DNA from: an uncultured Thermoleophilia bacterium
GTDB taxonomy: Bacteria > Actinomycetota > Thermoleophilia > UBA2241
Direction: 5' to 3'
NCBI GenBank assembly: GCA_963702475.1
Contig: CAVPCT010000003.1
Location: 416,001 to 480,000 of the forward strand
DNA length: 64,000 nucleotides
In this document: positions 18,244 to 49,665 of the stretch, one piece after another
How the letters are laid out: each line of letters begins with the position of its first letter
How positions within the stretch are numbered: the stretch's first letter is position 1
Made by a program: the position numbers and the translations under genes
The notes under the pieces: generated by a model
Database searches by the model: none
What the model saw: the letters and a program-made list of their open reading frames with translations, nothing else
Told to the model about the DNA's origin: nothing

Positions 18244-18282
18244 GGGGCGGCGGGCCTTCGGGTCCGCCGCCCCTCTTTCGTT
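18244..18282 (+). terminator. Intrinsic terminator
   Basis: ggggcggcgggcc-TTCG-ggtccgccgcccc followed by tctttcgtt. Confidence 0.8.
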
Positions 18283-18490
18283 CCGGGCGCCGGTCCGGCC
18301 TTCGGCCCGCCGGCGCCCGCCGCGTGGCGCGCAAGCCGGCCCTTCCCGGCCGCGCGCCCAAGCGCTCGTCGCCGGCCCTCCGGCCCTCGGCAGGAGCTGG
18401 ATGGCCGTGGCCCTCCGGCAGTGACCGACCCGGCCGTCGTCCGGAGCGGGCCGTGGCGTCCCGCCGGACGGCTGTGCTAGGATGCCGCCA

Positions 18491-18637
18491 GTCCTACTCC
18501 AAGCCCTCCGCCCTACGGCACTCTGCTATGGGCGCCGGGCCGTACCACGGACAGACCGTGGGGCAGCGCGACTGCGCTGTCGTGGGCCCGCGGCGGAAAC
18601 GCCCGGACCTCCTCGTGCTTGGAAAGGAGCAGAGGAC
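18491..18637 (+). promoter_or_regulatory. Moco-class riboswitch, P3-containing form
   Basis: aCTCCaag...cCTAcgg...TATgg (P2), long P3 (ccacggacag...ctgtcgtgg), GGAAAC loop in P4, CCTCC...GGAAAGGAG 3' end. P1 (gtcct-a-ctcc / ggag...aggac) covers the SD; TAGGAT -10 box at 18478. Confidence 0.75.
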
Positions 18638-18638
18638 G

Positions 18639-19044
18639 ATGACGCAGCTGACGCTGCCCCCGGCCGGGCTTGCGGCTGTACATGCACGGGACTCCCAATC
18701 GCTGCCGGCGACGGCGCCGCCGCAGCGGGCGTTCTTCGGCGACCTGCACGTCCACACCGGCGACTCCGAGGGGCGGGGCACCCCCGCCCGCGCCTACGCC
18801 GCGGCCAGAGTGGCCGGGGCAGACTCCCTCGCCGTCACCGAACACACCGACCTGGTTCGGTCCTGCCCGGTGGTCGGGCCAGCTGTCCGCGGCTGCGACG
18901 TCCGCGGACTTCGTGGCCTTGAGCGGCTACGAGGCGACGCTGAGCTGGGGTCACCTCAACGTGTACGGCACGGAGGCTTGGCCCGGAGACGACCATTTGG
19001 GGCGGCGGACGCCTGGACCGCACCCGTGTGGACCGGGGCCGTGA
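18639..19044 (+). pseudogene. Frameshifted, truncated CehA/McbA-family (PHP-type) metallohydrolase
   Basis: FFGDLHVHTGDSEG...AVTEH in one frame, DFVALSGYEATLSWGHLNVYG in another; the C-terminal half is missing. Confidence 0.7.
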
Positions 19045-19081
19045 ACGCTTCAGCGTCGAGTCCTGATCTCAAGGAGGAGCG

Positions 19082-19630
19082 ATGACCGAGACAGCATCGA
19101 GACTGAGCTGGCGGACGATAGGCCTGCTCGCGGCCGCCGCCGCCGTGGTTCTGGCCGTCAGCCTGTTCGTGGCGCTACGGCCTCCGGACGCGGTCCCCGC
19201 GGAGGGTCCCTACGCCGACCTGGTGCTCAAGGGCAAGCTGACCAAGCGCATCGCGTGGGCGGACCTCCCCGTCACGGTCTCCTGGGACGGCACCAAGGAC
19301 AGCGACATCCCCAAGGACCTGCAGGCCGTCTACAGGGGGCAGACGCTGTACAAGCTCATCGGCCTTGTGGACGACAAGAAGCCGGGGAGCTTCAACGTCG
19401 CTCTGGCCAGGAAGGGCTACAAGATCCGTCTTCTGGCGACCGACGGTTACAGCTGGGACATGGACAGCAAGGCGATCATCGGCAAGAAGACGTGGATCGT
19501 CGCGCGGCTCAAGAACGGCAAGCCGCTGCCGGACGGTGAAGGCCCGTATCGCGACGTCGGCTCGTTCATCAAGCACTTCTACGGTCGCGAGTCGGTCAAG
19601 ATGCTCACACGCATCCAGCTCGTGTTCTGA
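19082..19630 (+). CDS. Exported or membrane-anchored protein with one molybdopterin-binding oxidoreductase-like domain
   Basis: N-terminal hydrophobic segment; YRGQTLYKLIGLVD, LATDGY, IVARLKNGKPLPDGEGPYR, VKMLTRI pattern of the sulfite-oxidase Moco-binding fold; no Cys in the protein; AAGGAGG SD. Confidence 0.7.
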   Translation: MTETASRLSWRTIGLLAAAAAVVLAVSLFVALRPPDAVPAEGPYADLVLKGKLTKRIAWADLPVTVSWDGTKDSDIPKDLQAVYRGQTLYKLIGLVDDKKPGSFNVALARKGYKIRLLATDGYSWDMDSKAIIGKKTWIVARLKNGKPLPDGEGPYRDVGSFIKHFYGRESVKMLTRIQLVF

Positions 19631-19645
19631 CGCAGGCTCCTCCGC

Positions 19646-21760
19646 GTGACCGCCGTCTCACACTCGGTTCTGACGCGTCCCGCACCGATCGGGCGCGCCT
19701 CTCTCGTCGCAACGGGCGGGGTGTTGCTCCTGACGGGACCGCGCGGGAGCGGCAAGACGACCGCCTGCCGCGCGCTGGTCTCGGACACGGTCTCCCGCGC
19801 TGGCGTGGTGGCCGGCATCGTGTGTCCCGCCCGCTTCCGCGACGGCGTCAAGGTCGGCATCGACGCCGTGGACGTGGCGAGCGGTGCGCGCCGGCGGCTC
19901 GCCACGAGGCTCGACGGCGCCGACGCGTATCATGCGGCGGCCGGAGGGGACCTCATCCTCGGCTCCTGGAGCTTCGACCGCGAGGCTCTGGCCTGGGCCG
20001 ACGACGTGCTGGCGGCCTCGTCCCCGGCGTGCGATCTGCTCGTGATCGACGAGCTCGGCCCCCTGGAGCTGCTGCGCGGTGAAGGCCTGACCTCGGCGCT
20101 GGACCTCGTCGACGCGGCCGCGGCCGGCCTCGTCGTGGCGGTCGTGCGGCCTGAGCTCGTGGACGTCGCGCTGGAGCGCTGGCCGCTCGCCCGCACCGTC
20201 ACTCCGGATGCGCTGGCGGCGCAGGTGCGCGCCGCGGGCCTCGACGACTCCGGAGTCGCAGGCCGGCCTCGTCGGGGCGCGCCCGCGGCGCCGGCCGTCG
20301 AGCTCCGCGGCCTCTCGGTCACCTATGCGGGTCGGCCCGCGCTGCGCGACGTGACCCTCGACGTGGCGGCGGGCGAGTTCGTGCTCGTCAGCGGCCCCTC
20401 CGGTTGCGGCAAGAGCACGCTGGCGCGAGTCTTGGCCGGTCTCGTCCCTCACGTGCTGCCCGGCGTCGTCGACGGGGCGGTCAGGGTCGGAGAGGTCGAC
20501 CCGGTCGCCCGCGGTCCGGCGGCGACCGCCCGCCATGTGGGCACGGTGTTCCAGGAGCCGGCTTCCCAGCTCTTCTGTCTCACCGTCGACGAGGAGCTCG
20601 CCTTCGGGCCACGGAACCTCGGCCTCGACGAACGGGAGGTGGCGGAGCGGGTGGACCGGGCCGTGACGGCCTGCTCCCTCGAGGCCGTGCGCTCGCGGGC
20701 GCCGGCGGCGCTCTCGGGGGGCGAGCAGCAGCGGGTGGCGACCGCGGCGGTGCTGACGATGAGGCCGCGTGTGCTCGTGCTCGACGAACCGCTTGCCGGT
20801 CTCGACCTGGGGGGCGTCCGTGCGCTCCTTGCGACGCTGGAGCGCCTCAACCGTGAGGAGGGCGTGACCGTCGTCCTCATCGAGCACAGGCTGGGGGAGG
20901 TCGTGTCGCTGGCGGACCGCGTCGTGCTGCTGGAGCGCGGTCGCGTGGTGGCCGACGGCCGGCCCCGGGAGATCCTCCACGACGAGGAGCTGTCGCGCCG
21001 GCTGGGGTTCCGCCATCCGGCCGTCGAGCCGGCGTCGGAGTGGGAGGATCTCCTGCAGCCGCTGGCCGGTCCCGGCGCCGGCGAGGTCGTGCTTCGCGCC
21101 GAGCATCTCGCGGCGGGCTACGGGAGGCGCCGCGTGCTCCACGACGTCGAGCTCGAGCTGCACGCCGGGGAGCTCGTGGCCCTCGTCGGCGAGAACGGCT
21201 CGGGCAAGAGCACGCTGGCGCGCGTCCTCGCCGGTCTCCGGCGTCCGGCCTCGGGCAGCCTGACGTTCCCCGGCGTGCGGAAGCCGCGGCCGGGCCGTGA
21301 CATCGGGCTCCTGCTGCAGGACCCGGCCGACCAGCTGCTCACGGACGAGGTGGACGCGGAGGTCGCCCTGGGGCCACGCTCCTGGGGGCGCTTCGACGCG
21401 GCGGCGCACGAGGACCTGCTCAGGAGGAGCGACCTCGCCGACCTGCGCGGCTATCCTCCGCTCTCCCTGTCCGCCGGACAGCAGCAACGCACCGTGCTCG
21501 CCGCTTCTCTGGCGTTGAGGCCGCGTGTCCTCATCCTGGACGAGCCGACCCACGGCCAGGACTGGGGACACCTGGAGCATCTCGTGGGCGTCCTCCAGGA
21601 CCTCAAGGCGGGCGGCAGCGCGATCCTGCTCATCACGCACGACTTCAAGCTGGCCCACTTCTGCGCCGACCGGGTGATGGTCCTCCGCGACGGGCGCATC
21701 GCCGCCGAGGGCGCCTTCTCGCGGCGTGGAGCACGTACCGGACGTGGGGCGGAGCCGTGA
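19646..21760 (+). CDS. ECF transporter dual ATPase (A-A') fused to an N-terminal THEP1/DUF2478-like NTPase
   Basis: Three P-loops: TGPRGSGKTT with LLVIDELGPLE; GPSGCGKST with FQEPASQLF, LSGGEQQR, VLDEP; GENGSGKST with LQDPADQL, LSAGQQQR, LDEPTHGQD. Confidence 0.88.
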   Translation: MTAVSHSVLTRPAPIGRASLVATGGVLLLTGPRGSGKTTACRALVSDTVSRAGVVAGIVCPARFRDGVKVGIDAVDVASGARRRLATRLDGADAYHAAAGGDLILGSWSFDREALAWADDVLAASSPACDLLVIDELGPLELLRGEGLTSALDLVDAAAAGLVVAVVRPELVDVALERWPLARTVTPDALAAQVRAAGLDDSGVAGRPRRGAPAAPAVELRGLSVTYAGRPALRDVTLDVAAGEFVLVSGPSGCGKSTLARVLAGLVPHVLPGVVDGAVRVGEVDPVARGPAATARHVGTVFQEPASQLFCLTVDEELAFGPRNLGLDEREVAERVDRAVTACSLEAVRSRAPAALSGGEQQRVATAAVLTMRPRVLVLDEPLAGLDLGGVRALLATLERLNREEGVTVVLIEHRLGEVVSLADRVVLLERGRVVADGRPREILHDEELSRRLGFRHPAVEPASEWEDLLQPLAGPGAGEVVLRAEHLAAGYGRRRVLHDVELELHAGELVALVGENGSGKSTLARVLAGLRRPASGSLTFPGVRKPRPGRDIGLLLQDPADQLLTDEVDAEVALGPRSWGRFDAAAHEDLLRRSDLADLRGYPPLSLSAGQQQRTVLAASLALRPRVLILDEPTHGQDWGHLEHLVGVLQDLKAGGSAILLITHDFKLAHFCADRVMVLRDGRIAAEGAFSRRGARTGRGAEP

Positions 21761-22371
21761 AGTTCTCGACCAAGGAGCTGGTGACGCTGGCGGTGTTCGG
21801 CACGCTGTGGGGAAGCGTGGAGATGACGCTGGGAGCCTGGTTGCACGCGGCCAACGCGCCGTTCACGGGGCTTCTGCTCGCCGGCGTGGGCATCTGTGTC
21901 GCCCTCATCGGCTACGTGTTCGTGCCGCGCGCAGGCGCCGTGTTCATGATCAGCCTGGTCGCGGCGATCCTGAAGGCGTTCAGCGTCGGCGGCGTGGTGC
22001 TCAACCCCATGATCGCGATCGTCGTGGAGGGCCTGCTCGCCGAGCTCGGCTTGGCCATCGGCGGCCGGCACCGTCGTTTGCTGCCGTTCCTCCTGGCCGG
22101 CGTGCTCGCCGTCAACTGGTCGCTGGTGCAGCCCTTCTTCACCCAGGGCGTGCTCGCCGGGCAAGGTGTGTTCCTCATCTACACGCGCACGCTGCAGAGG
22201 GTCGCCGACCTGCTGGGTCTGAGCCCCGGCATGGTTGTCGCCCTGGTCGCCATCGTCGTCCTGGCGCACTCGCTGGTCGGTCTGGGCGCGGGCGCGGTGG
22301 CGGCCGGCGTGGGGCGTCAGCTCACGCGACGTCTGCGTTCGCGTGCCCCCGTGGAGGTTCCAGGTGACTGA
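21757..22371 (+). CDS. ECF transporter S (substrate-specificity) component
   Basis: 204 aa, about 6 hydrophobic helices, MKFSTKELVTLAVFG N-terminus typical of S components; lies between the ATPase and T genes. Confidence 0.75.
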   Translation: MKFSTKELVTLAVFGTLWGSVEMTLGAWLHAANAPFTGLLLAGVGICVALIGYVFVPRAGAVFMISLVAAILKAFSVGGVVLNPMIAIVVEGLLAELGLAIGGRHRRLLPFLLAGVLAVNWSLVQPFFTQGVLAGQGVFLIYTRTLQRVADLLGLSPGMVVALVAIVVLAHSLVGLGAGAVAAGVGRQLTRRLRSRAPVEVPGD

Positions 22372-23152
22372 GCGACGTAGCGGGCTCAGCGAGGGGGGCT
22401 CCGCAGGGGCACCGCTCAGTGACCGGCGGAGCGTCGCCACCCCACGAACGGCCGCGACCGCATCACTCGGCGGGTGGCTCGGCACCCCGGGCTACCTCTG
22501 CTGTTTCGCCGCCTCGATGACGGCGGCCGTGCTGCTGCCCGGCTGGCGGGCGGCGCTGGCTCTCGCCCTCGCTGCGGCTCTCGCGCTGCTGTTCTACCGC
22601 GTCGCCTTCCGCGCGCTGACGCACCCAGGGCTCTGGGTCTTCGTGGGCTTGCTGCTGGTCTCGATGACGTTCTGGGTGGGGGAGCCGACCGGCAGCCTGG
22701 GTCCGTTGCCGGCGTCCCTCAGCGGGCTGTCCGCCGGCCTGCAGATGTCGTTGCGGGCGCTGGCCATCACGCTGGCGGTGCGCGGGCTGGCGGCGCGCGT
22801 CTCGCCCGGGGAGTCGGCCGGCCTGCTGGAGCGCGCCGGCGTCAAGGGGCTGGGGTTCACCGTTGGCGTCGCCTTCAACCTCCTCCCGTCCATGGAGCGG
22901 TCTGTCCGCCAGACGCTGGACACGGCGCGACTGCGTGGAGGGTCGCTGTGGCGGCGGCCGCGGGTGCTGCGCCTGGCCGCCGTGACCGCGCTCGCCTCGG
23001 CGGTGCGGCGCGCCGAGGACGTGGCCGCGGCCGCCGAGGTGCGTGGGTTCTCCCCGCAGCACACGCGCGCCTTGCCGCTACGCCGCGGGCGCTACGACCT
23101 GCGGGTGGCCGTGGTGCTCGGCCTCGTGGTCGCCGGTCTCGTGGTCCTCTGA
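22364..23152 (+). CDS. ECF transporter T component (EcfT/CbiQ-like)
   Basis: Hydrophobic N-half; ARLRG and AAEVRGF motifs (XRX coupling motifs); GGAGG SD before GTG 22364. The N-terminus is encoded by the 51-bp repeat. Confidence 0.82.
   Translation: MTERRSGLSEGGSAGAPLSDRRSVATPRTAATASLGGWLGTPGYLCCFAASMTAAVLLPGWRAALALALAAALALLFYRVAFRALTHPGLWVFVGLLLVSMTFWVGEPTGSLGPLPASLSGLSAGLQMSLRALAITLAVRGLAARVSPGESAGLLERAGVKGLGFTVGVAFNLLPSMERSVRQTLDTARLRGGSLWRRPRVLRLAAVTALASAVRRAEDVAAAAEVRGFSPQHTRALPLRRGRYDLRVAVVLGLVVAGLVVL
22368..22430 (+). repeat. Copy of the dispersed 51-bp junction repeat
   Basis: ctgagcgacgtagcgggctcagcgaggggggctccgcaggggcaccgctca-gtgacc aligns with units 2757-2858. Confidence 0.75.
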
Positions 23153-23246
23153 GCCGAGTGGGCTTCGATGGCCGCGATGCGAGGCACCGCCTGCGGCGGA
23201 TGCCATCCTGTACAACGCGAACGCCGTCCGTTCTACCCCGGCGTCC

Positions 23247-23275
23247 TTGTGAGCCGTCGCACGACCGCGTAGACT
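23247..23275 (+). promoter_or_regulatory. Sigma70-type promoter
   Basis: TTGTGA-N17-TAGACT immediately 5' of the second riboswitch. Confidence 0.6.
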
Positions 23276-23279
23276 CACT

Positions 23280-23386
23280 GCGCTTCTCCGAGTCGTGGAT
23301 GCCTAAGGGCCGAAGGGCCTATGGCGCCGCGACCGGAAGGGTACAGCGGGAAACCGCCGTGTCTCCCAGTGCGGAAAGGAGAGCGC
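23280..23386 (+). promoter_or_regulatory. Moco-class riboswitch, P3-less (tungsten-cofactor-associated) form
   Basis: CTCCGAG...CCTAAG...TATGG (P2), then CCGGAAGG in place of P3, GGGAAACC (P4), CTCCC...GGAAAGGAG; P1 gcgcttctcc/ggagagcgc. A hairpin with a T-run follows at ~23395-23427. Confidence 0.85.
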
Positions 23387-23570
23387 GCTTCGCCGGGCCT
23401 CTCCGCGTGCGGAAGGGCCCTTTCGTTGCCCCCGTCACGCGGGCGGCCCACCGCCGCCGGTGCACGCGTCCCGGCGACCGACGGGGCTCCTCCTCGTTCC
23501 CCACCGGGCGAACCGGCCGTCCCGACCTTCCCGGAGAAGCGGTAACCGGGCCACGGGGAGGAGTGGGAGC

Positions 23571-24695
23571 ATGACAAGAAGACTGACTGTTATCACCGTG
23601 CTGGTGGTCGTTCTGGTGCTCGCGGCGGGGGCGATGGCGTTCGCCAGGCATGCCGCCTCGTCCGAGATGTACGGCTGGGACCTGCAGCTGCGCAACACGG
23701 TGTCCACCCAGTACAGCAGCGACATGGCGTACAAGGCGTTCACCGCCTGGGCGGCCGCGCATCAGGTGACGATCGTCGACACCAACAAGACGCCGGACAA
23801 CCCGGCCGACGACACCACGTACAAGGGCGTCGCCCTCAAGACGCTCGTGGGGTATTTCGACGACGCCGACCCCGGCACGTTCAACACGGCGCTGGCCTCG
23901 GCCGGGTACAACGTCGTGCTCATGGGCATGGACGGCTTCACCGGCACGTTCAGTGCAGCCGACATCGCCGCCCTTGGCGACAAGGTCATCCTCGCCAATC
24001 TCGCCAACGACGCCCCGCTTGCGGTGCCGGCCGCCACACTCGGCAGCGGTGGCGCTGCCAGCTGGAAGCCGAGCTGGCCGCTCAGGGTCGTCAGCAACGA
24101 GGGCAGCGTGACCGGCAAGATGAAGCCCGGCGGCGTGCTGCGCGTGAGCATCGTGTCGGCCACAGATCCCAACGCGCCGGCCGAGCCCGTGGCCTGGGAC
24201 CTGCAGCTGCGGAACACGAAGACCAAGAAGTACAGCGCCGACATGACCTCCACGCAGTGGGCGACCTGGGCGGCCAAGGCCGGACGTACCGTCACCGTCA
24301 GCAGCACCGAAGGCACGAAGACCGTCGCCTACAAGGGCGTCTCGCTCAAGAACCTGGTCGGCTACTTCGACGACAAGAACCGCACCACGTTCAACACGAA
24401 GCTGGCCGCCAAGGGCTACTACATCACCATCCTCGGCATGGACGGGTTCAGCTACGCGTGGTCGAGCAAGGGCCTCGCCAAGCTCGGTAACAAGGTCATC
24501 GTGGCGAGCCAGGCCGACGGCGCCCCGCTGCCCGTGCCCAAGCCCTTCGTCAACAGCGAGGGCGCCGCGGAGTGGGTGCCCGACTGGCCGCTGCGCGTGG
24601 TGAGCAACGTGCCCGACGTGGAGGTGGATGCGAAGGTCCAGGGCATCGTGCGCCTGACGATCTCGTCGAAGGCGCCCAAGACAGCCCCCTTTTGA
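23571..24695 (+). CDS. Secreted protein with two tandem molybdopterin-binding oxidoreductase-like domains
   Basis: Signal peptide (...AGAMA). Internal duplication WDLQLRNT...YKGV.LK.LVGYFDD...GMDGF...LG.KVI.A...WPLRVVSN occurs twice; no Cys. Confidence 0.8.
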   Translation: MTRRLTVITVLVVVLVLAAGAMAFARHAASSEMYGWDLQLRNTVSTQYSSDMAYKAFTAWAAAHQVTIVDTNKTPDNPADDTTYKGVALKTLVGYFDDADPGTFNTALASAGYNVVLMGMDGFTGTFSAADIAALGDKVILANLANDAPLAVPAATLGSGGAASWKPSWPLRVVSNEGSVTGKMKPGGVLRVSIVSATDPNAPAEPVAWDLQLRNTKTKKYSADMTSTQWATWAAKAGRTVTVSSTEGTKTVAYKGVSLKNLVGYFDDKNRTTFNTKLAAKGYYITILGMDGFSYAWSSKGLAKLGNKVIVASQADGAPLPVPKPFVNSEGAAEWVPDWPLRVVSNVPDVEVDAKVQGIVRLTISSKAPKTAPF

Positions 24696-25143
24696 CCGGG
24701 CGCGAGCGGCGGGCACCGACGACCTGAAGCTGACCCTGCGCGGCAAGACCAAGAAGGTGCTGCCGTGGGCCAAGGTGCCGGCCAAGGTGGCCTGGCACGG
24801 CGAGAAGGCCGGCAACATCAATCCGTCGTTGCGGTACGTGTACCGGGGCCAGACACTGTCCAAGCTGGTGGGGCTCGTGGACGGCGGGAACAGCTCGTTC
24901 AACGTCGCGCTCGCCAAGAAGGGCTACCAGATCCAGTTCGTCTGCCGGGACGGCTACAAGCCGAAGATCCCGAGCAAGTGGATCGTCGGCAAGAAGACCT
25001 GGATCGTGGCGAAGCTCAAGAGCGGCAAGCCACTGCAGGGTGACGAAGCTCCGTTCCGCTTCGTCGGCGGCAAGCCGATCACGCAGCCGTTCAACAACAA
25101 GCTGTCGGCCTACGGGGTGGTGGAGATCCGGCTCATCTTCTGA
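24694..25143 (+). CDS. Single molybdopterin-binding-like domain with no evident start or signal peptide; paralogue of 19082-19630, possibly reached by +1 frameshift
   Basis: YRGQTLSKLVGLVD, SFNVALAKKGY and IVGKKTWIVAKLKSGKPL closely match the 19082 protein. Homology extends upstream of the first GTG (24757), and the frame is open across the upstream gene's stop. Confidence 0.7.
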   Translation, partial: DRARAAGTDDLKLTLRGKTKKVLPWAKVPAKVAWHGEKAGNINPSLRYVYRGQTLSKLVGLVDGGNSSFNVALAKKGYQIQFVCRDGYKPKIPSKWIVGKKTWIVAKLKSGKPLQGDEAPFRFVGGKPITQPFNNKLSAYGVVEIRLIF

Positions 25144-25290
25144 GCCGTGCGCGACCGGCAGACGGCGCGACGGGGGCTTTCGCCCAGCTCCCGTCGCGCC
25201 TGCCGGCATCCGGCGGCCACGTGCCGCCGCGCGGGCGACGCAAGGCATGAGCCGACGACGGCTCACGGGCAGCACTGGAGGAAGTCAGCA

Positions 25291-26331
25291 ATGAAGAGAA
25301 CGAGCGTGTGGGCGGCCCTCGTGACCGTGGTGCTGGTCGCAGCCGTCGCCCTCGTGGGGACGGCGGTGACGGGCGGCGCGCCGCAGGCGTCCGCCGCCGA
25401 CCCGGTGGTGCTCACGATCACCGGCAACAGTCAGACCAAGACGTACACCATGACGGAGTTGCGGGCGCTGCCCGCCTACACCGGCTACGCCGGGTACGTG
25501 AACAGCTCCGGCACCGTCAGCCCGCCGTGGCCCATCAAGGGTGTGAAGGTCACGGACCTGCTGGCCGAGATCGGCGGCATCCCCGACGGGCAGTCGGTCG
25601 ACGTCACCGCCATCGACGACTACGGCATGACGTTCACCTGGGACGAGGCCGTCAACGGCTCCGTCACCGTGTACGACGCCACCACCAAGAAGGAGGAGCC
25701 TGCGGCCGCGCCGCTCTCCATGGTGCTGGCGTACGAGGAGAACGGCGCGCCCATCGCGGCTTACCCGACGGGAGACGGGCCCCTGCGCCTCGTGTTCGCC
25801 CAGACGCAGGACGTCGGCCAGATCGTCGACGGGCATCTGTTCGTCAAGTGGGTCGACCGCGTCGGCCTGCGCAACGCCGTCGTGCCCTGGGAGGTCAAGA
25901 TGTACGGCCTCAAGGACAAGAAGGGCAAGCGGCAGACGTACACGCTGGACCGCATGAGCTACGACTCGTGCGCCACGCCGGGGTGTCACGGCGCCTCCTG
26001 GGTCGAGCCGGCCACGCAGAAGACCTGGAGCGGCGTGCCGCTGTTCCTGTGCATCGGCAAGGTCGACGGCGGCAAGGGTCACGGCGGCTACGGCGCCTAC
26101 AACGAGGCCCTCGCCCTCAAGGGCTACCGCATCAAGATCACATCCGCCGCCGGCAAGAGTGCGATCATCGGCTCGCGGACCATCCGCAACGTCGAGACGA
26201 TCATCTTGGCCAACAAGCTGATGGGATCCGAGCTCGGACCGGACTACTACCCGCTGCGGCTGATGGGTCCCAAGATCGGCAGCAAGAACTGGGTCGGGCA
26301 GATCACCAAGATCACGCTGCTCCCGAAGTGA
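25291..26331 (+). CDS. Secreted protein with two molybdopterin-binding oxidoreductase-like domains and a CX4CH motif
   Basis: Signal peptide (...QASA); TYTMTELRALP, KGVKVTDLL, AIDDYGMTF, VLAYEENG, GPLRLV, FVKWVDRV; SCATPGCHG; second domain WSGVPL...IILANKLMG...YPLRLMG. Confidence 0.82.
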   Translation: MKRTSVWAALVTVVLVAAVALVGTAVTGGAPQASAADPVVLTITGNSQTKTYTMTELRALPAYTGYAGYVNSSGTVSPPWPIKGVKVTDLLAEIGGIPDGQSVDVTAIDDYGMTFTWDEAVNGSVTVYDATTKKEEPAAAPLSMVLAYEENGAPIAAYPTGDGPLRLVFAQTQDVGQIVDGHLFVKWVDRVGLRNAVVPWEVKMYGLKDKKGKRQTYTLDRMSYDSCATPGCHGASWVEPATQKTWSGVPLFLCIGKVDGGKGHGGYGAYNEALALKGYRIKITSAAGKSAIIGSRTIRNVETIILANKLMGSELGPDYYPLRLMGPKIGSKNWVGQITKITLLPK

Positions 26332-26398
26332 GAGCGCTCCGTGGACACCTGACGGCCGCGTGCGCCGCGGCACCCGGTGCTGCCCAGCGGACGGCATC

Positions 26399-27418
26399 AT
26401 GAGGACCCGGGTCCTCGCGGCCGTCGCCTTCGTGCTGGCGCTCTCCGTGCCGGCCGGCCTGGCCGCCTGCGGCGGCCAGGCCGGCCCCTCCGCCTCGCCT
26501 TCGCCCTCCGTGAGCCCCTCCGGGCCCGTCGTGCTCACGGTGGTCGGCGAGGACGGCCAGAAGCAGTTCACGATGAACCAGCTCCAGGCGCTGCCGGCCT
26601 ACACCGGGTACGCCGGCCTCAAGAGCAGCACCGGCGTCATCACGCTCCCCGTGGAGTACACCGGCGTCTCGCTCACCTCGCTCACCGACCTCGTGGGCGG
26701 CATGAGCAAGACCAACGGCGTCACGCTCGTGGCGAAGGACGGCTACGGTATGACGATCTCGTACGCGCAGCTCGTCGATCACGCCTTCACGACCTATGAC
26801 CCTGCCACGGGCGACGAGGTGCCGCCGGCGGACGACCTCACGGTCATCGTCGCCTACGCACGAGAGGGCGAGCCGCTGGGCGAGGACGAAGGGCCGCTGC
26901 GGCTGATGGTCGCCTCCCCCGATCCCGGAGGGCAGATCGTCGACGGACACTGGACGGTGAAGTGGGTCGACCGGGTCTCGGTCACCAAGGCCTCCGCGGA
27001 GTGGAAGGTGCAGATCCAGGGCGCGCGCCCCGACACCCTGGACAAGCCCAGGTACGTCAACTGCGCCTCGCCCGGCTGCCACGGTTCGGGCTGGGTGGAC
27101 GACAGCGGAAGGCGCTGGGAGGGCATCCCGCTCTACCTGGTCGCCGGTCTCGTGGACGACGAGAAGAAGCACGGCGAGGGCGCCTACAACGCGGCCCTGG
27201 CGAAGCAGGGCTACGACATCCTCATCGAGGACGCCGACGGCGAGGTGACGACCATCGACTCCCGCGACATCGCCGGCAGGGACGACGTGGTGCTGTCGTC
27301 CAAGGTGGACGGCGGCGAGCTCTCCGACGAGGACTTCCCGCTGCGGCTGGTCGGCCCGGGTCTGGACGAAGCGCAGATGCCCGGGCGCGTCGCCCGCATC
27401 GTCGTGCGCCCGCGGTAG
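26399..27418 (+). CDS. Lipoprotein with two molybdopterin-binding oxidoreductase-like domains and a CX4CH motif
   Basis: Lipobox LAAC then a Ser/Pro linker; FTMNQLQALP, YTGVSL, AKDGYGMT, VAYAREGEPL...GPLRL, VKWVDRV; NCASPGCHG; paralogue of 25291. Confidence 0.82.
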   Translation: MRTRVLAAVAFVLALSVPAGLAACGGQAGPSASPSPSVSPSGPVVLTVVGEDGQKQFTMNQLQALPAYTGYAGLKSSTGVITLPVEYTGVSLTSLTDLVGGMSKTNGVTLVAKDGYGMTISYAQLVDHAFTTYDPATGDEVPPADDLTVIVAYAREGEPLGEDEGPLRLMVASPDPGGQIVDGHWTVKWVDRVSVTKASAEWKVQIQGARPDTLDKPRYVNCASPGCHGSGWVDDSGRRWEGIPLYLVAGLVDDEKKHGEGAYNAALAKQGYDILIEDADGEVTTIDSRDIAGRDDVVLSSKVDGGELSDEDFPLRLVGPGLDEAQMPGRVARIVVRPR

Positions 27419-27428
27419 CGGGTACGGC

Positions 27429-28547
27429 ATGGCGGCAGGTGGTCGCGGGTCCGGGCGGGCGGTCCGGAGTGCGTGGGCTCGCGGGGCCGCACTCGCGCTG
27501 CTGGCCTGCGTCGCACTGCCGGCAGCGGCCCTCTCGGCGGCCTGCGGCGACACCCCGCGGCAGGTCAGGGTGATCGAGGCGGGCAGCCTCATCGTCCCGT
27601 TCGCCGACGTGGCCGCCGCGTTCGAACGGTCGCACCCGGGCGTGGAGGTCGTCACGGAGAGCCACGGAAGCATCCAGGTGCTGCGCTACGTGTCGGAGCT
27701 CGGCGAGCGCTTCGACCTCGCCGCGAGCGCCGACGAGCAGCTCATGGAGCCGCTGCTGTACGACCGCGACGACCCGGCGACGGGCGAGCCCTTCGCGAGC
27801 TGGTACTGCTCGTTCGCCACGAACCGGGTGGTCCTCGCCGTGTCGCCGAAGAGCCCGCTGGCCGGGCAGCTCACGGCCGCCGACTGGTACCGGCGCATCA
27901 CGGAGCCGGATGTGCGCTTCGGGCTCGCCGACCCGCGCTTCGACGCCGCCGGCTACCGCGCCCTGATGGTGCTCCAGCTGGCCGAGCGTGCCTACGACGA
28001 CCCGTACTTGTTCGAGGACATGTTCATGGGCGCGTTCACGTCGCCGGTGACCGTCGAGCAGCGCGGTCCGACGGCGGTCATCGAGGTCCCCGAGATCCTC
28101 GAGACCCGCTCCGGATCGCACGTCGTGCTCCGCGGCGCGAGCATCCAGCTGGTGGCGCTGCTGGAATCGGGCGACCTCGATTGCGCCTTCGAGTACGAGA
28201 GCGTCGCCCGGCAGCACGGGCTCGAGTACGTGCGGCTGCCCGGCTCCGTGGACCTCGGCGATCCGTCCCGCCGCGACCTGTACGGGACGGTGGAGGTCAA
28301 GCTCGACTTCCAGCGCTTCGCCAGCGTGCGCCCGGTCTTCCGCGGCGACGTGATCCGCTACGCGTTCACGATCCCCGCGAACGCGCCGGACCCCGAGCTG
28401 GCGGCGGAGTTCGCGGCGTTCCTTGTCGGCGAGGAGGGCCGCAGCATCCTCCTCGCCGACCACCAGCCTCTGCTCACGCCGCCCGAGCTCGACGGCGCGG
28501 CCGCCGCCCCGGAGGAGGTGAGACGGGCGTGCGCAGGGTCACGGTGA
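27429..28547 (+). CDS. wtpA: Tungstate/molybdate ABC transporter substrate-binding lipoprotein, WtpA-type
   Basis: AGSLIVPF, HGSIQVLR, ASAD, DPRFDAAGYRA, FEYESVARQHGL and IRYAFTIP match WtpA better than short ModA; lipobox SAAC. Confidence 0.85.
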   Translation: MAAGGRGSGRAVRSAWARGAALALLACVALPAAALSAACGDTPRQVRVIEAGSLIVPFADVAAAFERSHPGVEVVTESHGSIQVLRYVSELGERFDLAASADEQLMEPLLYDRDDPATGEPFASWYCSFATNRVVLAVSPKSPLAGQLTAADWYRRITEPDVRFGLADPRFDAAGYRALMVLQLAERAYDDPYLFEDMFMGAFTSPVTVEQRGPTAVIEVPEILETRSGSHVVLRGASIQLVALLESGDLDCAFEYESVARQHGLEYVRLPGSVDLGDPSRRDLYGTVEVKLDFQRFASVRPVFRGDVIRYAFTIPANAPDPELAAEFAAFLVGEEGRSILLADHQPLLTPPELDGAAAAPEEVRRACAGSR

Positions 28548-28647
28548 GCGTCCTCAGGGATCACAGGCGACCCTTCGCGCCGGGGCCCTGCGCCCGCCCG
28601 TCTCCCGCCGGGCGCGGATCGTACCGGCGGCGGCCCCTCACGGGCCC

Positions 28648-29454
28648 GTGACCCGGCGCCGCCCCTCGCTGTTCTGGGCGCTCTGCGCCGTCGCCGGCGC
28701 GGTGCTGGTGGCGTTCGTCGTGCTGCCTGCCGCCGGCATGCTCGCCGGTGCCGGCGCCGGCATGCTTGGCGAGGCGCTTCGTCAGGACGACGTGCGGCGC
28801 TCCCTGTGGCTCACCGTGAGCGCCGCCCTCATCTCCACCGCCATCGCCTTCGTCGCCGGCGTGCCGCTCGCCTACCTGCTCGCGCGCAAGGACTTTCCCG
28901 GCAAGCGTGTGGTGGAGGGCATCATCGACCTGCCCATCGTCTTTCCGCACACCGCCGCCGGCGTCGCCCTTCTCATGGTGTGGGGCCGCGAGGGCGTCGT
29001 GGGGCGGGCGTTCGCCTCGGTGGGCATCACGTTCACCGACACCGTGGCCGGTATCGTCCTGGCGATGCTGTTCGTGAGCCTCCCGTTCCTGGTGGACACC
29101 TCGCGAGAGGCCTTCGCGCTGGTGGACGAACGGTACGAGCACGTGGCCCGCACCCTGGGCTCGTCGCGTGCGGGGGCCTTCGCGCGCGTCACCTTCCCCC
29201 AGGCGTGGCGCGGCGTGTTCTCGGGCGCCGTGCTCATGTGGGGCCGCGGTATCAGCGAGTTCGGTGCCGTCGTCATCCTCGCCTACAACCCCAAGGTGAT
29301 CTCCGTGCTCACCTTCGAGCGGTTCGAGGGGTTCGGGCTCGACGCTGCAGAGCCCCCGGCCGTGCTCATCGTCATCGTCGCCTTCGTCGTCTTCCTCGTG
29401 CTGCGCACGCTGCTGCTGCCGCGACGCAGGCGCTCGCGCAGGGACGCGTCGTGA
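28648..29454 (+). CDS. wtpB: Tungstate/molybdate ABC transporter permease
   Basis: GVPLAYLLAR, IIDLPIVFPHTAAGVALL, VARTLG and WGRGISEFGAV motifs. Confidence 0.85.
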   Translation: MTRRRPSLFWALCAVAGAVLVAFVVLPAAGMLAGAGAGMLGEALRQDDVRRSLWLTVSAALISTAIAFVAGVPLAYLLARKDFPGKRVVEGIIDLPIVFPHTAAGVALLMVWGREGVVGRAFASVGITFTDTVAGIVLAMLFVSLPFLVDTSREAFALVDERYEHVARTLGSSRAGAFARVTFPQAWRGVFSGAVLMWGRGISEFGAVVILAYNPKVISVLTFERFEGFGLDAAEPPAVLIVIVAFVVFLVLRTLLLPRRRRSRRDAS

Positions 29455-30533
29455 TCGGCCTCCGGCGGCTCCAGGTCGAGGCCGGCGGCTTTCGCGTGGG
29501 GCCGCTGGACCTCGAGGTGGGCGACGGGGTCTACGGCGTGCTGCTCGGGCCGAGCGGCGCCGGCAAGAGCCTCGTCCTCGAGGCGGCCGCCGGCGTGTGG
29601 CCGCTCCGCGCCGGCGCCGTGCTCGTCGACGGCGAGGAGGTGTCGGCGCGCGCCCCAGAGCGGCGCCGCGTCGGCCTCGTCTTCCAGGACGGCCTGCTGT
29701 TCCCGCACCTGAGCGTGGCCGACAACATCGCCTACGGCCTGCGTGACGAGCCGCGTGTGGGGGCCGGGCGCCGTGGCCGCGCCGCGGCCGTGGCCGCGCT
29801 GGCGGGCTCCGTCGGCGCCGGCCACCTGCTCGAGCGCCGCCCTGCCACGCTCTCGGGCGGCGAGCGGCAGCGAGTCGCGCTGGCGCGCGCCCTCGCGCCC
29901 CGTCCGCGCGTCCTCCTCCTCGACGAGCCGCTCAGCGCCGTCGACACGGAGGCGCGGGAGGAGCTGCAGGAGCTGCTGCGGTCCCTCAGCCGCGAGCGCG
30001 GTCTCACCGTGCTCCACGTCACCCACGACCGCGCCGAGGCGTTCGCCTTGGCCGACGTGTGCGCCGTGCTCGTGGGCGGCCGGCTGCGCCAGACCGGCCG
30101 GCCGCAGGATGTGCTCAGGGAGCCGGCCGACGAGGCGGTCGCCCGGCTCCTCGGCGCGCGCAACGTCCTGCGCGCCTCGCGCGACCCGGCCGATCCCGCG
30201 CGCGCCCTGACCGTCTCAGGACTCACCCTGGCAGTCACGACCCCGCTTCCGGATGGCGCCTTCGACCTGGTCGTCCGCCCCGAGGACGTCGAGGTCCGTC
30301 CGCCCGGCGCCGCGGTGGCGGCAGGCACTGTGGCTCACGCCACCGTGGCTCGCCTCGTCCTGCAGGGCAGCCACGTGCTGGTCGGCGTCGAAGCGCGTGC
30401 AGCGGACGGTGCTCAGGCGCCGCTGGAGGCGCTGCTGGGGCGTCGCCGGGTCGAGGAGTTGGACCTGCGCATCGGGACCGCGATCGAGCTCGTCATCGAC
30501 CCCGCCCACGTCCACGTGATCCCGATCGCGTAG
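29451..30533 (+). CDS. wtpC: Tungstate/molybdate ABC transporter ATPase with a C-terminal TOBE-like region
   Basis: GPSGAGKS, LFPHLSVADNI, LSGGERQRVALARAL, LLLDEP; GTG overlaps the permease stop. Confidence 0.85.
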   Translation: MIGLRRLQVEAGGFRVGPLDLEVGDGVYGVLLGPSGAGKSLVLEAAAGVWPLRAGAVLVDGEEVSARAPERRRVGLVFQDGLLFPHLSVADNIAYGLRDEPRVGAGRRGRAAAVAALAGSVGAGHLLERRPATLSGGERQRVALARALAPRPRVLLLDEPLSAVDTEAREELQELLRSLSRERGLTVLHVTHDRAEAFALADVCAVLVGGRLRQTGRPQDVLREPADEAVARLLGARNVLRASRDPADPARALTVSGLTLAVTTPLPDGAFDLVVRPEDVEVRPPGAAVAAGTVAHATVARLVLQGSHVLVGVEARAADGAQAPLEALLGRRRVEELDLRIGTAIELVIDPAHVHVIPIA

Positions 30534-30622
30534 CGGTCGTAACGCCGTTTGCAGAACGCCCGCCGGGGAATGTGTGAGCCGACAGGCCGCGAGGCGCGGC
30601 GTCCCCAGCGGAGGAGGGTCCC

Positions 30623-30826
30623 ATGGCAATCAGCGCGAGAAACCAGCTCCCTGGCACGGTCAAGAGCGTCGTCCTCGGCACGGTGATGGCGGAGGTCGTC
30701 GTGGACGTGGCGGGGCACGAGGTGGTCTCGGCCATCACGCGGCACGCGGTGGAGCGCCTGGACCTCAAGGCCGGCGACGAGGTCAAGGCCATCATCAAGT
30801 CCACGGAGGTCATGATAGAGAAGTGA
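30623..30826 (+). CDS. Molbindin / TOBE (Mop) molybdate-tungstate binding protein
   Basis: MAISARNQLPG...SAIT...LDLKAGDEVKAIIKSTEVMI. Confidence 0.92.
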   Translation: MAISARNQLPGTVKSVVLGTVMAEVVVDVAGHEVVSAITRHAVERLDLKAGDEVKAIIKSTEVMIEK

Positions 30827-30916
30827 CGCATGGGCGCCCCGGCGTTAGACTCGTTGTGAACTGACGCCCATTCGGCGGCGCCCTGCGCCGTCCGTCCGAG
30901 GAAGAACGGCCAGCGC

Positions 30917-31882
30917 GTGAACGCCATCCCCGACAGGGTGCAGGGCCGCGTGGATTACCTGCGCCTCTCGATCACCGACCGCTGTAACCTGCGCTGCGCG
31001 TACTGCATGCCGCCAGAGGGCGTACCGGCGCGCGCCCACGGCGAGATCCTGAGCTACGAGGAGCTCGCCGCCTTCGCGCGCGTCGCCGCCGGCTGCGGCA
31101 TCAGCAAGGTGCGCATCACCGGCGGCGAACCGCTCGTGCGCCACGGCTGCGCCGACCTGGTGGCGATGCTCGCCCGCACCAGCGGCATCCGCGACCTCTC
31201 GCTGACTACCAACGGCACGCTGCTCGCGCGCTTCGCCGGCGAGCTCCGCGACGCGGGCCTGAGCCGTGTCAACATCAGCCTGGACAGCCTGGACGAGGCG
31301 CGCTTCGCCGAAGTCACGCGTGGTGGCCGGCTCGGCGACGCGCTGGCCGGCCTGGATGCCGCGTTCGCGGCCGGCTTCGCGCCGGTCAAGGTGAACACCC
31401 TCCTGCTCGAGGGCGTTGAGGACGAGTTGCCGGCGTTCGTCGACCTCACGCGAGCGCGCGAGGTGCACGTGCGTTTCATCGAGTTCATGCCGCTGGACCG
31501 CCGGCTGGGCGGGAGCGGCCGCCTGGTGCCGGCGCCGCAGGTGCTGCAGCGGCTGCGCGAGCTGTACGAGCTGGTGCCGCACGAGGGGCCGCTGGGACAC
31601 GGGCCGGCGCAGTACTGGCACGTGCCCGGGGCTCTCGGCACCATCGGCTTCATCGCCGGCGTCTCCGAGCACTTCTGCGAGAGCTGCAACCGCCTGCGTC
31701 TCACGGCCGACGGGCGTCTGCGCACCTGCCTGTTCTCGGGCGAGGAGACCGCCGTGCGGCCGCTCATCTCCCGCCCGGAGGAGCTGCGCGCCGCCATCCT
31801 CGCCGCGGTCTCGGGCAAGAGCTTCGACCGCTGCGCCGAGCGGCGCGCCAACGAGCGCGCCATGTCCGAGATCGGCGGCTGA
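30917..31882 (+). CDS. moaA: GTP 3',8-cyclase
   Basis: [33 protein letters not shown]...CLF and C-terminal MSEIGG. Confidence 0.97.
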
Positions 31883-31884
31883 GC

Positions 31885-32433
31885 GTGAACAGCCACCGCA
31901 GGCGGGCTGACGAGCGGTGTACCGAAGAGGCACCGCTCTGCGAGCTCAGTCACATCGACGAGCAGGGCCGCGCGCGCATGGTGGACGTGGGCGCCAAGGA
32001 CGAGACCGAGCGCGTGGCGCGCGCCGAGGCGCTCGTCGTCATGGCGCCCGAGACCCTGCGGCTCATCGCCGACCGGGCCGTGGCCAAGGGCGACGTGCTG
32101 GCCACGGCCCGCCTGGCCGGCATCATGGCCGCCAAGCGCACGCACGAGCTCATCCCGCTGTGCCACCAGGTCAACCTCACCGCCGTGCACGTGGACATCA
32201 CGGCCGACGAGGAGCTGCCGGGCCTGCGCGTGGTCACCGAGGCGCGCCTCCGCGGCCGCACCGGCGTGGAGATGGAGGCGCTCGTGGCGGCCTCCGTGGC
32301 GGGCCTCACGATCTACGACATGTGCAAGGCCGTGGACCGCGGCATGGAGGTGCGGACCGTGCGCCTCCTCGAGAAGAGCGGCGGCCGCAGTGGCCACTGG
32401 AATCGTCCCGACCTCAGCGAGGAGAGCTCATGA
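31885..32433 (+). CDS. moaC: Cyclic pyranopterin monophosphate synthase
   Basis: LSHID...[20 protein letters not shown] and IYDMCKAVD motifs; N-terminal extension encoded by a copy of the dispersed repeat. Confidence 0.96.
31898..31945 (+). repeat. Degenerate copy of the dispersed 51-bp repeat inside the moaC 5' end
   Basis: gcgggctgacgagcggtgtaccgaagaggcaccgctc compared with gcgggctcatcgaggggtgcaccgaagggacaccgctc at 2769. Confidence 0.65.
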
Positions 32434-33383
32434 GCGTTCACGACGTCGATGGGAACGTCGTCTCCGTCAACGTCGCCGAGAGCAAGGGCGTGCGCAAGGA
32501 CCCCGTCGAGTCGATCACGCTGATCGTGGAGCACGGTGTGGAGGGCGACGCGCACGCCGGCCCGTGGCACCGTCAGGTCAGCCTGCTGGCGCGCGAGAGC
32601 GTCGACAAGATGCTGGCCGCGTGTCCCACCGTGGACAACGGCGCTTTCGGCGAGAACATCACCACCGAGGGTCTCGTGCTCTACGAGCTCCCCGTCGGCG
32701 CCCGCTTCTACTGCGGCGAGTGCCTGCTCGAGGTCACGCAGATCGGCAAGGAGTGCCACGACCGCTGCGCCATCTTCCATCAGGCCGGCGACTGCGTGAT
32801 GCCGCGCGAGGGCATCTTCGCGCGCGTGCTCGAAGCCGGGCGGATCTCGCCCGGCGACGGCATCGTCCTGTTCAGGAACAGCCTCATCGTGGCGGCGGTG
32901 CTCACGGTCAGCGACAAGGGGTCGCGCGGCGAGCGTGAGGACACCAGCGGCGACGCCCTTGAAGAAGGACTCACCGCGATGGGCGTGGCCTCCGTGGAGC
33001 GTGCGATCGTGCCGGACGAACAGGACGAGATCTCGGCTGCACTCAGGCGCTGGGCCGACGAGACCAACGTCAATCTCGTGCTCACGACGGGCGGCACGGG
33101 GATGACCAGCCGCGACGTGACGCCCGAGGCCACACTGGCCGTGCTCGACCGCCAGGCTCCGGGCTTCGCTGAGGCGATGCGCGCGGGCTCGCTGGCCGCC
33201 ACGCCGCACGCGATGATCTCGCGCGCCGTGAGCGGTATGCGCGGGCGCACCCTGATCATCAACATGCCGGGGAGCCCGAACGCCTGCAGGGAGCAGTTCG
33301 CGATGATCGCCAAGGCGCTGCCGCACGCGGTGGAGAAGCTGCAGGACCGCGGCGGCGACTGCGCGCCCGCGCCGCGGCCCTGA
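32430..33383 (+). CDS. MOSC domain-MogA (molybdopterin adenylyltransferase) fusion
   Basis: [28 protein letters not shown]...C...CVMPREG (MOSC); TVSDKG...[26 protein letters not shown] (MogA/MoaB). Confidence 0.92.
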
Positions 33384-49416: not shown

Positions 49417-49451
49417 ACGCAGACCGGCGGAGCGGACTCCCAAGTCAGCAA

Positions 49452-49612
49452 CCCAGCGCCTGGCCCGCGTGGTCGCGCCCCTCCGGGGCGCCGCACGCGG
49501 GTGACGAGGTGGAGGTTCATCGAAAGACTCGGCGGATGCCTCCCGGCCCGGCACGGTCGTGATCGAGTCGCCAAAACCCGCCGGCGACGGCGGAACAAAC
49601 CGGCTCGAAGGT
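49452..49612 (+). ncRNA. glmS ribozyme (GlcN6P-activated self-cleaving riboswitch)
   Basis: AGCGCC at 49455, P1 cccgcgtg/cacgcggg, then TGACGAGGTGGAGGTTCATCGA...TCGGCGGATGCCTCCCGG core and an A-rich P4 (aaaa...aacaaa); directly upstream of glmS; TACACT -10 box at 49400. Confidence 0.9.
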
Positions 49613-49665
49613 GCCGTCCGCAGCCCTGCCCATCTGCGCCCACACCCCGCGAGGGAGGGAGCGCC

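Follow-up and report, generated by a model that had tools for sequence, protein, structure and literature searches.

What is imported by a transporter whose genes stand behind a riboswitch for the molybdenum cofactor (Moco)? The question is raised by an island at positions 18491-33383 of a 64,000-nucleotide stretch of DNA, here called the window, from an uncultured Thermoleophilia bacterium (assembly GCA_963702475.1, contig CAVPCT010000003.1, positions 416,001 to 480,000 of the forward strand). The island carries an energy-coupling factor (ECF) module, exported proteins related to sulphite oxidase (SUOX), a tungstate/molybdate transporter and genes of cofactor synthesis. An earlier note on this DNA had proposed that, with free oxyanion uptake already covered by WtpABC, the ECF module most plausibly brings in a pterin. 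There are very good grounds for regarding the module as real, conserved and, as an importer, a member of the Mo-cofactor regulon. As to its substrate, the balance leans away from pterin import, and we put the chances at about even that the module supplies inorganic molybdenum, as molybdate or a thio-oxyanion, with tungstate possible.

An ECF importer and its relatives

Every element described earlier for this co-oriented island of about 15 kb is present in the source-genome window, and all lie on the plus strand, as borne out by Rfam, Pfam, NCBIfam and jackhmmer searches (Table 1). By its domain content, operon 1 is recognizable as encoding a dedicated group I ECF-type ATP-binding cassette (ABC) importer, comprising an S component, a T component, fused A-A' ATPases, a THEP1-like NTPase and a small SUOX-fold protein. 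The genes for S, T and A overlap in an unbroken run at 19646-23152, and their order is the same in the 82 related loci examined, where tblastn gives NTPase, EcfA-A', S, often a small gene, and then T (EcfA-A' in 72 loci, T in 55, the NTPase in 35). Two NCBIfam models match the two ATPase domains of EcfA-A' above their cut-offs (TIGR04521, 340.4 bits against 330; TIGR04520, 336.8 bits against 315). T genes directly after S in L008-L012 are 84-86% identical to the window's T. A pattern scan flagged a terminator-like hairpin at 22472-22497 (plus strand); its position within the conserved beginning of the T gene makes it unlikely to be a terminator.

The ECF ATPase of the window begins with a PF03266 NTPase domain (about residues 1-215) that was absent from the earlier note. 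Of 35 related loci with this NTPase, 32 have it as a gene of its own and three have it fused, like the window; all 18 members tested match PF03266. In an alignment of the window domain (19646-20290) with those of 17 loci, a Cys three residues past the P-loop Lys (GKTxxC) and a Trp are both invariant, and Walker B reads DELGPLE. Three of the 18 members also touch DUF2478, and one touches MobB.

To what family does the S component belong? Searched by sequence, its profile matched no Protein Data Bank chain, and a fold search was needed. The AlphaFold2 model is helical throughout (pLDDT 86.3), and the best Foldseek match is 5edl, an ECF S component (TM 0.60, E 0.016), followed by TmRibU (E 0.56). 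The S component would thus represent a family distantly like YkoE, of the vitamin type, and one named only generically: a word-indexed protein search returned 61 relatives called 'ECF transporter S component' or 'thiamin/HMP permease' or given no name, and the protein atlas clusters of S are called 'hypothetical protein'.

Searching genome contigs with the single S protein gave two loci, L004 and L005 (Chloroflexi bacterium and Anaerolineales bacterium). A profile scan of metagenome contigs gave 442 S relatives, of which 80 loci, many of them short, were kept for analysis. In one Chloroflexota class (around genome G402), 64 of 401 genomes carry the S family, as do 5 of 401 genomes of a phylum sample around G401. 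The sample of the window's own phylum gave one weak match among 400 other genomes, and the family is not native to most of that phylum. Full-text literature searches, within the text that they could reach, tied no ECF transporter to Moco, molybdate or tungstate and turned up no bacterial Moco importer. This agrees with the earlier statement that no Moco importer of such design is known to have been characterised in bacteria, and the ATP-driven importer family is apparently undescribed.

Predicted control by Moco-class riboswitches

Does the link between the module and the cofactor extend beyond the window? The membership in a Mo-cofactor regulon that was proposed earlier is upheld by the related loci. 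A match to the Rfam model RF01055 lies directly upstream on the same strand at all three loci found first (the window, L004 and L005), and a match of at least the gathering score (36 bits) stands just before the first module gene, on the plus strand, at 27 of the 38 metagenome loci that have upstream sequence. These include near-duplicate pairs (L014/L015, L077/L079, L053/L054 and L008/L013), leaving about 23 distinct positives. A motif scan pointed to further, sub-threshold riboswitches, three of which were borne out at the same place in E-value mode (L036, 36.0 bits; L057, 28.7 bits; L058, 28.2 bits), a rescan that left out L060 and L080. When five carrier genomes were searched whole, a riboswitch stood at the module only in G402. 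All 27 matches upstream of the module are 153-204 nt long, the size of P3-containing elements; the P3-less elements of these genomes are 111-121 nt and precede aldehyde:ferredoxin oxidoreductase (AOR), moaA-moaC or TupA-like genes.

In the accessible text of the 2008 study of this RNA class (PMC2408646), P3-containing elements go with Mo functions, and P3-less ones with W functions and molybdopterin (MPT) synthesis; P3-less RNAs before 'sulphite oxidase' genes of S. wolfei are treated there as Moco-using exceptions. We note that in genomes G803, G809 and G816 (L088-L095), P3-less RNAs precede AOR genes, a moaA-moaC-moaE operon and a TupA-like gene, in line with that split. In G803 a P3-containing RNA precedes a permease-ATPase-TupA operon, an exception to the 2008 split.

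Both aptamers of the window cover RF01055 model positions 1-135. The last five bases of aptamer 1 take in the ATG (18639) of the first open reading frame (ORF), and the 3' strand of its P1 contains AGGAG. Since the ATG falls inside the 3' end of the aptamer, and the Moco element of E. coli moaA represses translation when Moco is present (accessible text of PMC2408646), riboswitch 1 is predicted to be a translational OFF switch controlled by the ligand. The hairpin region after riboswitch 2 folds at -18.5 kcal/mol, no better than shuffles, so that the aptamer, hairpin and U-rich tail are no more than compatible with attenuation.

The ORF that begins inside aptamer 1 was called a hydrolase relic in the earlier note. 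Only the N-terminal motif of a PHP-family hydrolase is in frame, and PHP-like sequence goes on in another frame, so the term relic fits. No counterpart was found by tblastn in the 82 related loci. Its stop overlaps the start of the next gene (ATGA at 19082-19085), which would allow translational coupling. One might ask whether the whole island reached the source genome by recent transfer and has since decayed in part, leaving an ECF operon that may no longer work there. The frameshifted relic lies between the riboswitch and the first intact gene and has no equivalent in L008, L011 and L013, the closest loci, and the near-absence of the S family from the window's own phylum sample would also suit recent transfer. 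Yet the ECF genes and the exported protein have intact frames, 73-86% identical to relatives of the same order, and the overlap of the relic's stop with the next start would permit coupling. We consider decay very improbable.

A third Moco riboswitch of the source genome (48 bits, minus strand, contig C3:562381-565516, L003) lies outside the window. It stands directly before a gene for a lipoprotein ModA (TIGR01256, 140 bits), with a MobA/MobB-like ORF upstream. The source genome therefore has three separately riboswitch-controlled Mo/W systems, and the coverage of oxyanion uptake by WtpABC that the earlier note pointed out holds and goes further, to ModA. The source genome has 29 matches to PF00384, the Mo/W-bisPGD enzymes, several with in-frame TGA; the organism relies heavily on Mo/W enzymes.

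The exported SUOX-like proteins

The small protein of operon 1 (19082-19630) matches, by profile, SoxC (2xts, 1.9e-6) and PruR (7kom, 8e-6). With its AlphaFold2 model (pLDDT 81.8) as query, the top seven Foldseek matches are all PruR (TM to target 0.51-0.73), followed by SoxC. By jackhmmer, the four operon 2 ORFs starting at 23571, 24757, 25291 and 26399 belong to the same domain family. Export was judged by eye from the N-termini (hydrophobic anchor, Sec signal, lipobox). Of the four signal sequences, those of 19082-19630, 25291-26331 and 26399-27418 have no twin arginine. The fourth, in the two-domain protein 23571-24695, opens with MTRRL and may direct that protein to the twin-arginine translocation (Tat) route.

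Are these proteins enzymes? In the five window proteins, as in 28 related lipoproteins that were inspected, the aligned Moco-domain region is free of Cys. The exported Moco-fold proteins of the earlier note are thus best read as non-catalytic SUOX folds, since the Mo-ligand Cys is absent. We tried and rejected their being ordinary Tat-exported Moco enzymes, on the absence of the Cys ligand, the three signals without twin arginine, and the OFF-type control.

The small exported protein is found beside S in 45 of the 82 loci by jackhmmer. Its usual form is a lipoprotein of about 145-150 aa encoded between S and T. The window and the loci nearest to it, L008, L011 and L013, have the gene upstream instead, and there the protein carries a membrane anchor. 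We also note that 25291-26331 and 26399-27418 have CX4CH motifs (CATPGCH, CASPGCH) between their two domains and weak 'GEGP diheme' matches; these two proteins might bind haem covalently and hence have a redox role.

It could be that the SUOX-like proteins are themselves central, as extracytoplasmic redox or sensor proteins, and that the ECF module delivers or recycles their ligand or imports another compound needed when Moco is low. The two larger paralogues with CX4CH, and their weak matches to a diheme family and SorT/SoxC, would suit such a role; so would the signalling role of PruR (PMC11194511), and the presence of the small protein next to S in little more than half of the loci, which makes it separable from S. 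Against this, the proteins have no Mo-ligand Cys, and the cofactor that such enzymes would need is the very one predicted to turn the operons off. The linked genes encode MoeA, MobB and Mo/W binding proteins; redox partners and signalling domains are not among them. ECF modules are known only as importers. We regard this scheme as improbable.

A stronger competitor is pterin import, in which the module takes up Moco, metal-free molybdopterin, cyclic pyranopterin monophosphate (cPMP) or a breakdown product. The PruR-like domains would bind and protect this pterin, and MoeA and MobB would restore its metal or turn it into the dinucleotide. PruR itself, in the accessible text of PMC11194511, is a secreted, Cys-less, truncated SUOX fold in which the pterin is sandwiched between Tyr and Trp and held by an Asn hydrogen bond. 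The resemblance in fold to such a protein is a point for this proposal; the binding residues are less favourable. Mapped by sequence alignment, not by superposition, the ECF-linked proteins, including 19082-19630, and the typical lipoproteins keep the stacking Tyr (DGY), and have Asp for Asn and Met for the stacking Trp. The PW loop is deleted in typical ECF-linked lipoproteins; PW and VKW are found only in the N-domain of 25291-26331. The exported domain would therefore have a PruR-like fold and lack the features that define the PruR family (PW, and Tyr, Trp and Asn together). A predicted complex of S with the mature exported domain scored 0.01 (mark 0.32) and was used neither for nor against any proposal. 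Taking all the evidence, including that set out below, we consider pterin import possible, though doubtful.

Companion genes of the module

If the module brought in a pterin, one would look for it in genomes that do not make their own. We compared 40 carriers of S with 40 non-carrying neighbours; the Fisher values ignore kinship. MoaC is present in 36 of the 40 carriers and 39 of the 40 non-carriers (p 0.36), and carriers therefore make their own pterin; the expectation that the module would favour genomes lacking moaA and moaC proved mostly negative. Salvage of cPMP alone is weakened by the same retention of MoaC. The striking difference is in ModA (TIGR01256 over its cut-off), present in 1 of 40 carriers and 20 of 40 non-carriers (p 1e-6, kinship uncorrected). 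In the sampled Chloroflexota class the S family replaces ModA, the two being nearly mutually exclusive. TupA-like proteins (NF041772, E at most 1e-30) occur in 23 carriers and 24 non-carriers (p 1.0), and WtpA over its cut-off in 10 and 6.

What lies next to the module? Sequence reaches 2.5 kb or more beyond T at 30 loci. On the same strand after T, 12 of these have MoeA, 11 have MobB and 16 have at least one of the two; at L080 and L082, MoeA is just upstream of the module. The SUOX-like domain has a wider range: its profile finds it in 28 of the 80 genomes, non-carriers included. It shares an open frame with a Mo/W binding protein in L103 and in L104:5708-6979, as PBP_like_2 plus PF00174, the latter frame scoring 234 bits on the TupA model. 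In L107:391-1863 it is joined to WtpA (408 bits on NF003196, plus PF00174). Three-domain SUOX-like lipoproteins come directly before WtpA in L104, L106 and L108, and in L106 the three-domain lipoproteins and WtpA are followed by WtpB, MoaA and MoaC, which is the layout of operon 2 of the window. From these TupA and WtpA fusions and neighbours, the truncated SUOX domain appears as a recurrent companion of oxyanion uptake generally, not of the ECF module alone. We also note, read by eye, an ORF of about 481 aa (L100, 5939-7381, G818:C7) whose N-terminus is like a double ABC ATPase. It lies within a mogA-moeA-moeA-moaA-moaC cluster, on another contig than the S gene of G818, and is followed by a TupC-like ATPase and a TupA-SUOX fusion.

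What is imported?

The supply of inorganic molybdenum is favoured by the replacement of ModA, the retention of MoaC, the link to MoeA, the fusions with TupA and WtpA, and the parallel with cobalt, in which B12 riboswitches control the ECF importer CbiMNQO, with its small extra component. Of the earlier interpretation, then, the riboswitch-linked ECF module stands, while the step from covered oxyanion uptake to a pterin substrate is not supported: ModA, MoaC, the co-operonic MoeA and the fusions of the SUOX domain all speak against it.

How might such a system work? When Moco is plentiful, the aptamer would lock the Shine-Dalgarno sequence and start codon in P1 and turn the operon off; when Moco is scarce, the importer would be made. 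The exported SUOX-like domain would capture the anion, or present it at the membrane surface, S would take it up, and A-A' and T would power the toppling cycle of S. MoeA would then insert the imported metal into the cell's own molybdopterin. Where carriers have no ModABC, the module would stand in for it; in the source genome it would work beside ModABC and WtpABC. For the latter transporter, capture would fall to the four SUOX-like proteins of operon 2.

A number of observations weigh against inorganic molybdenum as the substrate. No ECF transporter is known to import an anion. S belongs to the vitamin type (PF09819, with 5edl and then RibU closest in fold), not the CbiM/NikM metal type, and among solved structures the exported domain comes closest to pterin binders, whose stacking Tyr it keeps. 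The source genome has ModA behind the third riboswitch as well as WtpABC, so that a third oxyanion importer looks redundant there, and G401, too, has a ModA-like protein. The ModA contrast lacks phylogenetic control. On a MoaC tree of 75 genomes there are only four independent contrasts on supported branches; averaged, ModA runs opposite to S in 2.4, the same way in 0.0 and shows no difference in 1.6 (median p 0.5), so that the contrasts agree in direction and are without power, the sign test being unable to reach significance. TupA and MoaE show no trend on the same contrasts. Riboswitch control of the module is frequent, not universal: E-value mode found no RF01055 at L016, L018, L023, L019, L030 or L063, and direct scans of the ECF loci of G803, G811 and G816 found no riboswitch. 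MoaE (PF02391) is present in 19 of 40 carriers and 30 of 40 non-carriers (p 0.02). Finally, four of the 40 carriers are without both MoaC and MoaE (G402, G887, G914 and G949), yet all four keep PF00384 enzymes and three have MoeA.

Several of these observations are what pterin import would lead one to expect: the YkoE-like S component, the presence of ModABC and WtpABC in the source genome, and the deficit of MoaE. G402 fits this proposal as well. No MoaA, MoaC, MoaE, ModA, WtpA or TupA was found in it, yet it has four MoeA_N and five PF00384 matches, and its ECF operon contains MobB and the start of a MoeA gene. The absence of ModA, too, would be expected if Mo arrived within the cofactor. 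On the other side stand, besides the retention of MoaC in most carriers and the altered pterin site, the fusions of the same domain to the oxyanion binders TupA and WtpA; and a metal-loaded cofactor would not need MoeA in the operon. The absences of MoaA, MoaC and MoaE come from draft genomes of uncertain completeness. Where a genome has both MoaC and MoaE, the two are neighbours, and the loss of a single contig would take both away. MoaC without MoaE is also found in eight non-carriers, and PF02391 may for that reason simply miss a MoaE variant; the weak MoaE-like protein of the source genome had no matches when searched against the 80 genomes, an uninformative result. Substrates or roles outside inorganic molybdenum (or tungsten) and pterins seem unlikely, even when all are taken together.

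Operon 2 and other features of the window

The WtpABC transporter is recognized by a WtpA over its equivalog cut-off with permease and ATPase adjacent. The molbindin is the 67-aa ORF of Table 1, to which the Mop match belongs, and not the 96-aa ORF.

Downstream of MoaC in the window is a MOSC-MogA/MoaB fusion. In L097, L099 and L100 (G811, G817 and G818), translations read by eye have MoaC followed by a small protein whose N-terminus resembles the window MOSC, and this pairing, in genomes without a PF02391 MoaE, is the layout of 31885-33383. MoaC without detectable MoaE is seen in 26 of the 80 sampled Chloroflexota genomes. Either a divergent MPT synthase or no MPT synthase is present in those lineages. 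Elsewhere in the window lies a full-length glmS ribozyme/riboswitch (49444-49617, plus strand; RF00234, 82 bits).

Table 1. Features of the Mo/W island, in window coordinates (cut-offs in brackets)
Feature	Position	Strand	Evidence and remarks
Terminator-like hairpin	18244-18273	+	13 pairs then T-rich tail; closes upstream transcription unit
Moco riboswitch 1, P3-containing	18489-18643	+	Rfam RF01055, 48.5 bits; 38-nt insert at P3 position
PHP-family hydrolase relic, 148 aa	18639-19085	+	NCBIfam partial matches, residues 34-74
Putative membrane-anchored, Cys-less, truncated SUOX/PruR-like protein, 182 aa	19082-19630	+	PF00174, 18 bits, below cut-off
THEP1-like NTPase plus EcfA-EcfA' fusion, 704 aa	19646-21760	+	PF03266, PF00005 x2, TIGR04520, TIGR04521
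ECF S component, 204 aa	21757-22371	+	PF09819, 29.1 bits (25.2)
ECF T component	22436-23152, start uncertain; open frame 22235-23152	+	PF02361 CbiQ, 47.7 bits (25)
Moco-class riboswitch 2, P3-less ('Tuco') type	23274-23397	+	RF01055, 58.3 bits; P3 columns deleted
Hairpin then UUUCGUU, 3' of riboswitch 2	hairpin 23395-23420, element to 23427	+	
Protein with two tandem SUOX/PruR-like domains, putatively exported	23571-24695	+	jackhmmer 1e-58; no Pfam match
Single SUOX/PruR-like domain ORF	24757-25143, start uncertain	+	51% identical to 19082-19630
Two-domain SUOX-like protein, putatively exported	25291-26331	+	PF00174, 37.5 bits
Putative lipoprotein paralogue of 25291-26331	26399-27418	+	PF00174, 42.9 bits; lipobox LAAC, CX4CH
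WtpA tungstate/molybdate-binding protein	27429-28547	+	TIGR03730, 258.1 bits (242.75)
WtpB permease	28648-29454	+	PF00528
WtpC ATPase, C-terminal TOBE	29451-30533, start inferred	+	PF00005, PF03459, PF08402
Mop molbindin, 67 aa	30623-30826	+	TIGR00638, 69.4 bits, over cut-off
MoaA	30917-31882	+	PF04055, PF06463
MoaC	31885-32433	+	PF01967, 184.5 bits
MOSC-MogA/MoaB fusion	32430-33383, start inferred	+	PF03473, PF00994 (MoCF)

Significance

What would follow from each reading? If the substrate is an oxyanion, the module would be the first ECF-type importer of an anion and a fourth bacterial route of Mo/W uptake. It would explain the supply of Mo without ModABC in about one-sixth of the genomes of a large Chloroflexota class, and the truncated SUOX fold would be seen in a new part, aiding Mo/W uptake by ECF, Tup and Wtp systems from outside the cytoplasm. 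If instead a pterin is imported, the module would be the first known bacterial (dedicated prokaryotic) importer of Moco or molybdopterin, and the PruR-like surface proteins would be devices of cofactor capture. Cross-feeding of the cofactor would then be directly testable; anaerobes such as Anaerolineae could share it, and some lineages like G402 could live as molybdopterin auxotrophs. Either way, several gene families that at present bear the names 'hypothetical', 'thiamine/HMP permease' or 'molybdopterin-dependent oxidoreductase' would call for re-annotation, and the 'sulphite oxidase' genes found behind Moco-class riboswitches in 2008 would be explained.

Comparison with known systems

The RNA class and its P3/P3-less split are those of the Moco/tungsten cofactor (Tuco) regulon of Regulski et al. 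2008 (PMC2408646), whose accessible text mentions no ECF transporter. The SUOX-family molybdoenzymes conserve the Mo-coordinating Cys that is absent from the SUOX-like proteins described here. With PruR (7kom, 7kp2, 7kos/7kou and 7rkb) the small module protein shares its size, probable secretion, Cys-less truncated SUOX fold and pterin-stacking Tyr. It differs in that typical members are without the PW loop and have the stacking Trp replaced, and in that its partner is a transporter or Mo/W binding protein (ECF, Wtp/Tup, MoeA and MobB neighbours), not a DcpA-type diguanylate cyclase/phosphodiesterase. Its genes are under Moco-riboswitch control, and its hosts are Chloroflexota and Actinomycetota-like, whereas those of PruR are Proteobacteria.

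The ModABC, WtpABC and TupABC importers have the regulon in common with the module: Moco-class riboswitches precede modA in the source genome and TupA-like genes in G809 and G803, and MoeA, MobB and moa genes are neighbours of both. Those three belong to type I of the ABC importers and have a classical binding protein, whereas the module is of type III (ECF) and has none of that classical kind; the small exported protein encoded beside S at many loci may or may not bind the substrate. The two kinds coexist in the source genome. YkoEDC, a group I vitamin ECF importer (5edl), provides the best fold match of S (TM as given above) and shares PF09819, yet S has no match to any solved chain at the level of sequence, the regulon is that of Moco and not of thiamine, and the module has an exported helper and an NTPase in addition.

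On the favoured reading, the supply of inorganic molybdenum, the module would be most like CbiMNQO and NikMNQO, compared here by Pfam families: all would be dedicated ECF operons of group I through which a cofactor's metal is imported. The cobalt and nickel importers are under B12-riboswitch or NikR control, so that a riboswitch for the finished cofactor turns them off, as is predicted for the module, and a small extra extracytoplasmic or membrane component stands beside S in both. The differences lie in the S component, which is PF09819/YkoE-like instead of CbiM, in the presumed anion, in the SUOX-fold helper and in the added THEP1-like NTPase.

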